A stretch of DNA of 64,000 bases from Naegleria gruberi (Eukaryota). The stretch lies in NCBI GenBank assembly GCA_000004985.1, contig GG738908.1; one strand, 5' to 3'. Of the stretch, positions 51,901 to 54,298 are shown piece after piece. A model generated the notes under the pieces. The model saw only the letters and a list, made by a program, of their open reading frames with translations, was not told where the DNA came from and made no database searches. How positions within the stretch are numbered: the stretch's first letter is position 1; the number at the start of each line of letters is the position of its first letter. The position numbers and the translations under genes are program-made.

Positions 51901-54298
51901 AAAAGAAACGACTTCCAAAACCAAAACATACAACAGTAATTGTTTCATTTATTATTATTGCAATATTTTTGGTTTGTTCTGGAATTTTCTATCAGGAAAT
52001 GTTGACAAATGTTGAAAGAGCAAATATTGCCATGCAAAATGTTGATATTGCATCTCTAATGATCAGAACAACCAATAGAATTACTCTGAGATTGAATGAA
52101 ATGTTTTCCTATCTCAGTATTCCACTAGGAAAATCGGTAAATAATCCTGCTATTGTTACCGCTTCTGTTATTGCACAATACAGAGCAGATGTGAGAACAT
52201 TTACAACAACTGTACAATCTCTATTCTCTCAATTAGTTTACGGAACTAACAGTACAAACTCAATTATTGGCATTTACCCTAAAATTGATGAAATGTTAAA
52301 GGGAGATCCTACTTGTGATAATGTTACCTTATTGTATTGTGGAAGTTTGGAACAAATGGTATCAATTTATACTATTTTGGGTGGAGGAATGTCTGAAAAC
52401 TTTTTCAATCCAATCTATGCCAAAAACTCTAAAGAAGTGTTGAATTATCTTGTAAAAATGTATAATATGAACGATATGGTTTTCGAAAAGCTTGTTGATT
52501 TCATGGATTTGTTGGTTACCTATACTGGTCAAGCTAGTTTATCATCAACTATTGGACTTTTTATTGCTGGATTGATAGTCTTGTTAATTTCCAATTACAC
52601 CATGTATTTATCTATTATTACCTATGACAGACAAGTTTCCAGTTTGAGAGGAATGTTGAACTATTTACCTTACGAGTGGATTGAATCGAATGAAACTGTA
52701 AAGAATTTTGTTTTCTATAATTCCTTGCCACTCGTTAATCAAAGGAATAATTTAAAGAAGGGAAGTGATACACTCAACAATTTACTTCATTCCATGGTTG
52801 ATGGTGCAGTGCTTTCTAACGAGAAGGGAGAAATTCTTCTATTCAACACTGCATGTCAAAGACTATTCTCTAAAATTCCTTCAGAAGTAATGGGACTCAA
52901 ATTCTACTCATTATTTGATAAGGCCAACGAATCTAAATTAATAGACATTGCCAGAAATTGTAGAGATTACCTTGTTGAAGGAGAGAACAATAAGAATGGT
53001 GAAGTTATGGAGTTGAATTGTATCAGAAAGAATCTATCCACATTCCCTGCACAAGTTAATATTTTCGTCACAAGAGATGGTGATAATAAGGTTGTCATTG
53101 TATGCTTTATCAAGGATATTACTACAGAAAAGAAGGCAAATACATTACTAAGTGAAGAAAAGAAGAATTCTGAAAAGTTGTTGAGAAATATTCTACCAGA
53201 ATCTGTTGCATTGAAATTGAAGAGTGGTAACAGCTTTGTTGCTGAAAGATTTAATGATGTTAGTGTATTCTTTTCAGATATGTAAGTATTCCACAATTAT
53301 TATTATTCATAATATTCATATATATTCCATAATTATTATTCAATATATTAATATTACTCAAATTAAATAGGGTTGGATTTACAGCATTATCATCGGATAT
53401 GAATCCATCTGATTTGATATTACTATTGAATAATGTAGTGAATGGATTTGATGATTTGACTGACAAGTATGAATTGGAAAAGATTAAAACTATTGGAGAT
53501 GCATACTTTTGTGTTGGAGGTTTACCAATCAATCCACAATCTGATCACCCTGAAAGAACGCTCCGATTTGCTATGGATTGTTTTAGTGTAATTAGAGGAT
53601 TCAACCAAGCTACAAATGGAGAGAAGGTTATCAATATTAGGTTAGTATTATTATTATTTGTAATATTTAGGTAGATGTTAATATTGTTGTTGTGCTCATC
53701 CATCTATATAGAATTGGTATTAATACTGGATCAGTTGTAGCTGGTGTTATAGGAAAGAAGGTAAGTTTTTATAATTGTTATTAATAATATTCATGATGAT
53801 AATTGTTGAATAGAAATTTGCATATGTGAGTGTTGTTATTATTAAAACATTATTAATTGTTTAATATTTTCATACTGATGCTGAATGATGAATAATTATT
53901 ATTAGGATCTGTGGGGAGTAAGTAAATTATAATTAAAATTCAAATACTAACCAAACATCAAGGATACAATCAACACTGCCTCCAGAATGGAATCTAACAG
54001 CAAGCCAGGGCGTATTCAAATTTCACGATCAACCTATGAAAGGTATGTGTTAAAATCTTCTATTTGTTGATATATTATTCTACTTTATAGAGTGTACGAT
54101 TTAGGATTTGAATTTGAAGAAAGAAGTATTGATGTGAAAGGAAAGGGTGTATGTACTTGTTACTTGATGAATGAAAGGTATCACGATAATCCACTGGATA
54201 TTCAAGTTGTTGGTAATAATACTGTTGTTCCACCTGTGGCTTCCGAGAATCCAATCATGACAGCCTTGTCTGATGACCAGACTTCATTGACACAATAA
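48949..54298 (+). CDS. Multi-pass membrane class III adenylyl cyclase with a PAS-like region and a single cyclase-homology domain; at least 8 exons including two 12-nt microexons
   Basis: CDS join(48949..51617,51662..53281,53371..53640,53712..53760,53814..53825,53906..53917,53963..54042,54091..54298). All introns are GT(A/G)AGT...AG and 44-89 nt long. The N-terminus has about 8 TM helices, a long loop and one more TM. The PAS-like region is DGAVLSNEKGEILLFNTACQRLFSKIPSEVMGLKFYSLF. The cyclase-homology domain (CHD) reads FFSDM|VGFTALSS...LEKIKTIGDAYFCVGGLP...INIR|[70 protein letters not shown]. The substrate-specifying residues are Lys (K-TIGD) and Asp (YDLWG), which is the adenylate type. Metal Asps and the N/R transition-state residues are present. 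An alternative upstream His-rich ORF (48725) in another frame may be a 5' extension. Confidence 0.8.

Follow-up and report, generated by a model that had tools for sequence, protein, structure and literature searches.

How does a gene encode an intact adenylyl cyclase core when the codons for that core are broken apart by 202 nucleotides (nt) of interrupting sequence? The question is raised by positions 53761-53962 of a 64-kb Naegleria gruberi window (the whole stretch of DNA analysed; all coordinates are positions in it, and all features lie on the + strand), within the gene NAEGRDRAFT_73911, whose product carries a class III cyclase domain at its C-terminus. The stretch divides into three GT-AG introns of 53, 80 and 45 nt with two 12-nt coding exons between them. 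We hold it very probable that these are three short spliceosomal introns and two genuine coding exons, expected to be spliced in every transcript, which encode residues K123-Y126 and D127-G130 of the domain. The two exons are referred to below as microexons D and E, lying between exons C and F (Table 1).

Both are internal, no longer than 15 nt and bounded by AG and GT, as coding microexons are (AATAG/12 nt/GTGAGT for D and ATTAG/12 nt/GTAAGT for E; slashes mark splice junctions or intron positions here and below). The predicted junction string of the spliced message is GGAAAGAAG/AAATTTGCATAT/GATCTGTGGGGA/GATACAATC, or GTTATAGGAAAGAAGAAATTTGCATATGATCTGTGGGGAGATACAATCAACACTGCC in contiguous form, and a double skip from 53760 to 53963 would be expected to leave GGAAAGAAG/GATACAATC. 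The three introns have a G+C content of 17-20%. The middle intron contains an in-frame stop, and its length is no multiple of 3; the third ends in an AAG acceptor and, 11 nt before it, has a TACTAAC (53945-53951) resembling the branch-site consensus. A first-pass annotation, made from the letters of the DNA, had already given the exons, their splice sites and the start of the next exon, and all of its coordinates and sequences are right to the base.

The case for both exons being coding rests first on an exhaustive comparison of splice paths. Every GT-AG path across 53735-53990 was enumerated and scored against a profile hidden Markov model built from 101 non-heterolobosean homologues, mostly bacterial. 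Only 79 of the 1179 paths are open and in frame, and the single best of the whole set, at 233.4 bits, is the one that includes both microexons. The best path lacking one of them reaches 212.0 bits and the path skipping both 193.2 bits. The runner-up (225.9 bits) uses the same two exons with an alternative donor at 53832, which would lengthen the first microexon to 18 nt (KFAYVS). Second rank is what this path has in its favor; its donor, GTTGTT, is poor next to the GTGAGT at 53826, and it adds two residues exactly where both halves of the solved cyclase AC9 align without a gap, so that we give it next to no chance of being the true splice.

The gain obtained by including the two microexons lies far beyond chance. 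When the interior of the 202-nt stretch was shuffled 300 times and the best path was compared with skipping, the gain over skipping both exons was 10.8 +/- 4.6 bits (maximum 22.1), as opposed to 40.2 bits for the real sequence. Scores against Pfam Guanylate_cyc fall in the same order, from 190.4 bits with both microexons to 174.4 when KFAY is left out, 168.8 when DLWG is left out and 157.7 when both are. A contiguous motif spanning the microexon residues is present in 13 heterolobosean homologues. By path scores, shuffles and conservation alike, inclusion thus restores a conserved peptide beyond chance, and the claim that the cyclase motif can be rebuilt only by way of both 12-nt exons holds: theirs is the unique best of all paths, the rebuilt motif aligns ungapped to solved cyclases, and the deposited protein contains the same residues. 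A profile test proposed alongside that claim, in which full domain coverage would appear only when both exons are included, proved non-discriminating because coverage is 2-182 of 183 profile positions in all four variants; only the scores differ, and it is these that are informative.

The same results bear on the reading in which the whole 202 nt is one intron, KFAY and DLWG are decaying relics, and the product is a dead pseudo-cyclase. The skip path is indeed open and in frame. Relics, however, would need to have kept perfect codons for invariant residues together with consensus splice sites on both sides, none of the 300 shuffles came near the observed gain, and the remaining 1631 codons are intact. 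We regard a single intron as very improbable.

The public record agrees with the two-microexon structure. The gene product is deposited as XP_002671112.1 (EFC38368.1, UniProt D2VXX5; P0121 in our set), a 1950-residue 'predicted protein [Naegleria gruberi]', and our hand-spliced model with seven introns is identical to it over 1599 C-terminal residues, starting at NSEFPSPF; the gene's upstream portion matches it at 99% identity. Given this identity, both microexons are already in the public coding sequence (CDS). The reading is therefore correct rather than a discovery, and the expectation that such exons would be easily missed by gene predictors was not borne out here. Among the papers searched, none dealt with microexons in Naegleria or mentioned NAEGRDRAFT_73911 by name.

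Several points weigh against the two-microexon structure. A search with the junction-spanning peptide found no 100%-identical RNA-derived fragment, its top match being a 78% identical paralogue. The public gene model dates from 2010 and was possibly built by homology, and so does not constitute independent proof. The acceptor of the third intron, AAG, is the weaker form. Finally, the closest relative found, the contig L050 described below, has no intron at these positions, so conservation of exon structure across species is not usable as support. The gene is real and intact, and almost certainly spliced as annotated.

What the microexons encode becomes clear from the catalytic domain. With both included, the domain belongs to Pfam PF00211 with a score of 190.4 bits, well over the cutoff of 21.9. 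It aligns to AC9 (7pd4) with E = 1.8e-59, ungapped through the microexon region in both the C1 and C2 halves, one of the two half-sequences in this region being GVIGTTKLLYDIWGDTVNIASRMD; the bacterial 'Adenylate cyclase' entries 4p2m and 1yk9 are further solved relatives. Across 37 homologues ranging from cyanobacteria to Naegleria, half of the eight microexon residues never vary (K123, D127, W129 and G130), and for F124 and Y126 conservation is at least 90%.

In class III cyclases, adenine, and hence ATP, is selected by a Lys in KIKTIGD and an Asp in YDxWG, replaced in guanylyl cyclases by Glu and Cys; metals are bound by the aspartates of FSDMVGF and TIGDAY, and TxNxASRM supplies the Asn and Arg that stabilise the transition state. 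Each of these six canonical positions is present in the single Naegleria domain. The Lys/Asp pair, K55 and D127, is invariant in the 37 homologues and aligns with KIKTIG and YDIWG of AC9 C2. The metal-Asp motifs FSD-MVGF and TIGD-AY align with FADIVGFT and TLGDCYY of AC9 C1, and D59, a candidate metal-binding Asp, is invariant, as are N134 and R138 of TxN..ASRM. Having all six in one domain supports, at the level of sequence, both the name adenylyl cyclase and the first-pass proposal that the predicted substrate-specifying Asp sits on a microexon: D127 of YDLWG, on microexon E, is matched in the alignment by the YDIWG Asp of AC9 C2. Judged by these positions, the domain has the pattern of homodimeric bacterial-type adenylyl cyclases. 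Where it departs from the solved enzymes is in its setting, since the cyclase domain is carried together with a TmcB-type TPR segment and a PAS domain on a multi-pass membrane protein.

In an AlphaFold2 model of the domain (predicted local distance difference test, pLDDT, 93.4), residues 118-126 form a loop and 127-129 a short strand, and the helix 131-141 begins exactly at the first residue of exon F. The microexons are thus predicted to encode the return of a beta-hairpin and the short strand carrying the putative adenine-selecting Asp. Without both of them, the enzyme would be expected to lose the specificity Asp and the spacing of its core.

In a further reading, D and E are cassette exons whose skipping yields a cyclase without the specificity Asp, possibly an inactive or dominant-negative dimer partner, so that splicing regulates activity. 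Both lengths are multiples of 3, the skip variants are all open and still score as cyclases (157.7-174.4 bits), and the weaker AAG acceptor of the third intron would suit such regulation; the donors GTAAGT, GTGAGT and GTAAGT, on the other hand, are strong, and the paralogue L053 possesses a 5-nt microexon that cannot be skipped without a frameshift, from which it follows that frame-neutral skipping is not a feature of the family. Regulated skipping of D and E is possible in that the frame is kept, nothing supports it, and we judge it improbable. With vertebrate neuronal cassette microexons (3-27 nt) the pair has its size class and frame-preserving length in common. The vertebrate exons are alternatively spliced under the control of specialised regulators and usually map to the surface of the protein, whereas the Naegleria pair encodes invariant core residues. 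We consider D and E most likely constitutive.

Closer parallels come from land plants, where there is ample documentation of coding exons no longer than 15 nt, most of which had been absent from annotations (PMC8831610). As in Naegleria, these are internal exons flanked on both sides by GT-AG introns, they can occur as adjacent pairs, and they can be modelled from the flanking conserved peptide (PMC8831610). Most of the plant structures have been kept since land plants arose, and the plant cases are backed by RNA (PMC8831610), whereas the Naegleria pair was read from genomic sequence and is absent from the 90%-identical L050. In rice, a transcript with a 5-nt and a 12-nt microexon side by side was verified by reverse transcription PCR (PMC8831610); the first-pass description of back-to-back microexons as unusual is thus fair, yet the arrangement is not unprecedented. 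The finding is real and, in kind, a known phenomenon.

One may also ask how the exon pair stands among relatives of the gene. The genus Naegleria has at least 81 cyclases (PMC9928731), and N. gruberi combines a moderate intron density with many intron positions common to other eukaryotes (PMC3174169). Seven other loci were compared after splicing of their cyclase domains and mapping of the introns, and none of the seven has the 12+12 pair. The heterolobosean paralogues L051-L054, which come from environmental and Logan contigs, and the homologues from Willaertia and N. lovaniensis share the protein motif and have 1-3 introns per domain, against six in the window gene; in the homologues that scored highest in the first search the number is 0-2.

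The closest relative, L050, is a 567-nt contig (European Nucleotide Archive, ENA, ERZ27254845, k141_2874174). Its product matches that of the window gene at 97 of 108 amino acids (90%), with 79.6% nucleotide identity; only 16 of 32 four-fold sites are identical, and the divergence is therefore old. L050 has introns at HT-G and DTI/N, its microexon stretch is uninterrupted, and at the five window intron positions in the overlap it has none, so that exon structure is not conserved between the two. Although the two proteins are so alike, the turnover of their intron positions is complete.

Among the other loci, intron positions recur exactly in some cases and lie a few bases apart in others. L051 (from the same ENA sample as L054) has D-M and LWG/D introns at the exact positions and phases of the window gene, plus one at AYF/A. 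Introns at AYF/A and in GGV-I are present in L054, which is 99.5% identical to N. gruberi P0122, and the open reading frame (ORF) P0057 runs through an intron that sits at NI-R, where the window gene has 53641-53711. In the Logan contig L052 an intron at KKK/F lies 3 nt downstream of the window's GKK/K. The single domain intron of Willaertia magna L001 (2950-3002) falls in the Asp codon of FFSD in phase 1, 4 nt upstream of the Met-codon intron shared by the window gene and L051 (53282-53370, phase 2), near to it and not identical; its KKKFAFDLWGD is in one exon. N. lovaniensis L002 likewise keeps the KKKFA[YF]DLWG stretch within a single exon; its one intron falls in the ASRMES Arg. L002 was considered as an orthologue and rejected, synteny being absent and the N-terminal part only 25-30% identical.

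L053 (JGI 3300002220, contig MLSBCLC_10255569) provides a second case of an ultra-short exon in this part of the domain. An intron at IKK/F, 3 nt from GKK/K, is followed by the 5-nt exon TTTGC (314-318), which codes for F and part of A, the second intron lying inside the Ala codon. The exon is flanked by GTGAGT...AATAG and GTAAGT...TTTAG introns and is needed for the frame and the conserved motif; the path that includes it is the best of 76 (159.7 vs 150.5 bits).

Of the three introns flanking the window pair, the outer two thus have counterparts in paralogues (LWG/D in L051; L052 and L053 3 nt away), and the middle one, FAY/D, is so far unique among the loci compared. Nine homologues together show 16 distinct intron positions in about 190 codons, 10 of them within the 35 codons from NIR to ASR; this clustering is no fair statistic, because L051-L054 were picked for ORF starts that hinted at introns there, and we make no statistical claim of a hot spot. 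We tentatively suggest, as a conjecture we ourselves rather doubt, that the heterolobosean PAS-cyclase paralogues may have, in their beta4-beta5/alpha4 core, a hot spot where introns are gained or slide and ultra-short exons arise time and again.

Searches for further instances in metagenomes gave nothing. A scan with the PAS-linker peptide produced 396 pattern matches, none confirmed, and a scan for AG/AARTTYGCNTAY/GTRAGT found 47 loci, none with a cyclase context by tblastn. In the cyclase-domain query, P0121 and P0122 were not among the 120 matches listed, though both carry the domain C-terminally (P0121 identically); the word index perhaps does not cover the ends of very long proteins, and absence from such searches is accordingly weak evidence.

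We envision that the three introns would be recognised by intron definition, given their short length, AT-richness and strong GTRAGT donors; exons of only 12 nt would then pose no recognition problem. Neighbouring introns are probably removed one after another rather than simultaneously, as adjacent spliceosomes would hardly fit on a 12-nt exon at once. The arrangement itself may have arisen by intron gain in a paralogue family with poorly conserved intron positions. A common ancestor with all seven introns of the window gene and L050 would have had consecutive exons of 12, 12 and 9 nt, and this suggests that at least one lineage gained introns after the split. An origin of the introns from introners or by duplication was considered and is not convincing, the similarity being weak: the best pairwise local alignment among 14 introns has a z of 4.2, which comes from AT-rich low complexity and GTAAGT, and the only repeats are short low-complexity ones.

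Some likeness between intron ends was seen at two loci. The introns 53761-53813 and 53826-53905 have similar 3' ends, ATGATGATAATTGTTGAATAG and ATGATGAATAATTATTATTAG, and the L053 introns 240-313 and 319-359 have similar 5' ends, GTGAGTATTATG and GTAAGTATTATTG. With z about 3-4 in AT-rich sequence, this may be chance or the trace of a local duplication.

Since the public CDS already splices both microexons, the annotation and the functional call, a predicted ATP-specific class III cyclase, stand, and little changes for this gene. It offers a clean test case for gene finders, eight core residues being recoverable only through two 12-nt exons. The lead most worth following is the variable intron map of the cyclase family. 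If the pattern of turnover is general, it bears on intron gain and movement in intron-poor protists and carries a warning, since homologues in unannotated heterolobosean genomes will then come out shortened or frameshifted with ordinary predictors; and if the tentative hot spot were to prove true in an unbiased survey, it would be a compact natural system for introns gained a few bases apart.

The remaining parts of the gene are listed in Table 1. The encoded protein comprises a multi-pass membrane region with the TmcB-type TPR segment, the PAS domain and the C-terminal cyclase domain.

Table 1. Exons and introns of NAEGRDRAFT_73911 in the window, in order of position.
Feature	Coordinates	Strand	Length (nt)	Description
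5' coding exon	48949..51617	+		Multi-pass membrane region and TmcB-type TPR; 48949 is the first ATG of the ORF
Intron	51618..51661	+	44	GTAAGT...ACAG; splice confirmed by identity to P0121
Exon	51662..53281	+		Transmembrane segments, PAS domain, start of cyclase; ends ...FFSD plus AT of Met codon
Intron	53282..53370	+	89	Phase 2, in Met of FSDMVGFT; L051 intron at same position and phase
Exon B	53371..53640	+		VGFT...KIKTIGDAY...VINI(R); second predicted metal-binding Asp and Lys partner of predicted specificity Asp
Intron	53641..53711	+	71	GTTAGT...ATAG, phase 2, in Arg of NIR; same site in read-through ORF P0057
Exon C	53712..53760	+	49	Opens in Arg codon; ends GGTGTTATAGGAAAGAAG (GVIGKK), then GTAAGT
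Intron	53761..53813	+	53	Phase 0, GTAAGT...AATAG, GC 0.17
Microexon D	53814..53825	+	12	AAATTTGCATAT = KFAY (domain K123-Y126); TTGAATAG before, GTGAGT after
Intron	53826..53905	+	80	Phase 0, GTGAGT...ATTAG, GC 0.20
Microexon E	53906..53917	+	12	GATCTGTGGGGA = DLWG (D127-G130); ATTATTAG before, GTAAGT after
Intron	53918..53962	+	45	Phase 0, GTAAGT...CAAG (CATCAAG end)
Exon F	53963..54042	+		Begins right after CATCAAG; closes in Arg codon; Asn and Arg invariant in 37-sequence alignment
Intron	54043..54090	+	48	GTATGT...ATAG, phase 2
Last exon	54091..54298	+		Ends ...SLTQ; TAA stop at 54296-54298

All seven introns are 44-89 nt long, with a GC content of 0.15-0.24 and donors GTAAGT, GTGAGT, GTTAGT or GTATGT. 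Six of them lie within the last kb of the 5.3-kb gene (48949-54298), in the cyclase domain, and one in the first 4.3 kb; such 3' loading is the reverse of the 5' bias usual in intron-poor genomes.

The true start of the 5' exon is uncertain, the choice being between the ATG at 48949 and the public model, which joins at about 49066 (NSEFPSPF) from upstream exons. That model has 351 extra N-terminal residues taken from an upstream ORF, 46909-48545, with weak matches to methyltransferase domains (DIGCGNG, TGTPPY). The paralogue P0122 has no methyltransferase-like N-terminus, and the in-frame ATG at 48949 opens the membrane region. Over 46909-49158, XP_002671112.1 is thus probably a fusion of two genes made by the predictor.

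A search of the stretch for another gene or RNA returned only ORFs of at most 52 amino acids and one sub-threshold snoRNA match. The latter, to snoU83D in Rfam, lies at 53149-53224 inside a coding exon; its 25.6 bits (E = 0.043) fall short of the gathering score of 55, and we take it as chance. The 64-kb window contains no second cyclase. Assembly gaps appear in it as runs of N at 1036, 1054-1103, 25360-26100 and 58982-62910, the last of which spans 3.9 kb and explains the zero G+C in the composition profile.

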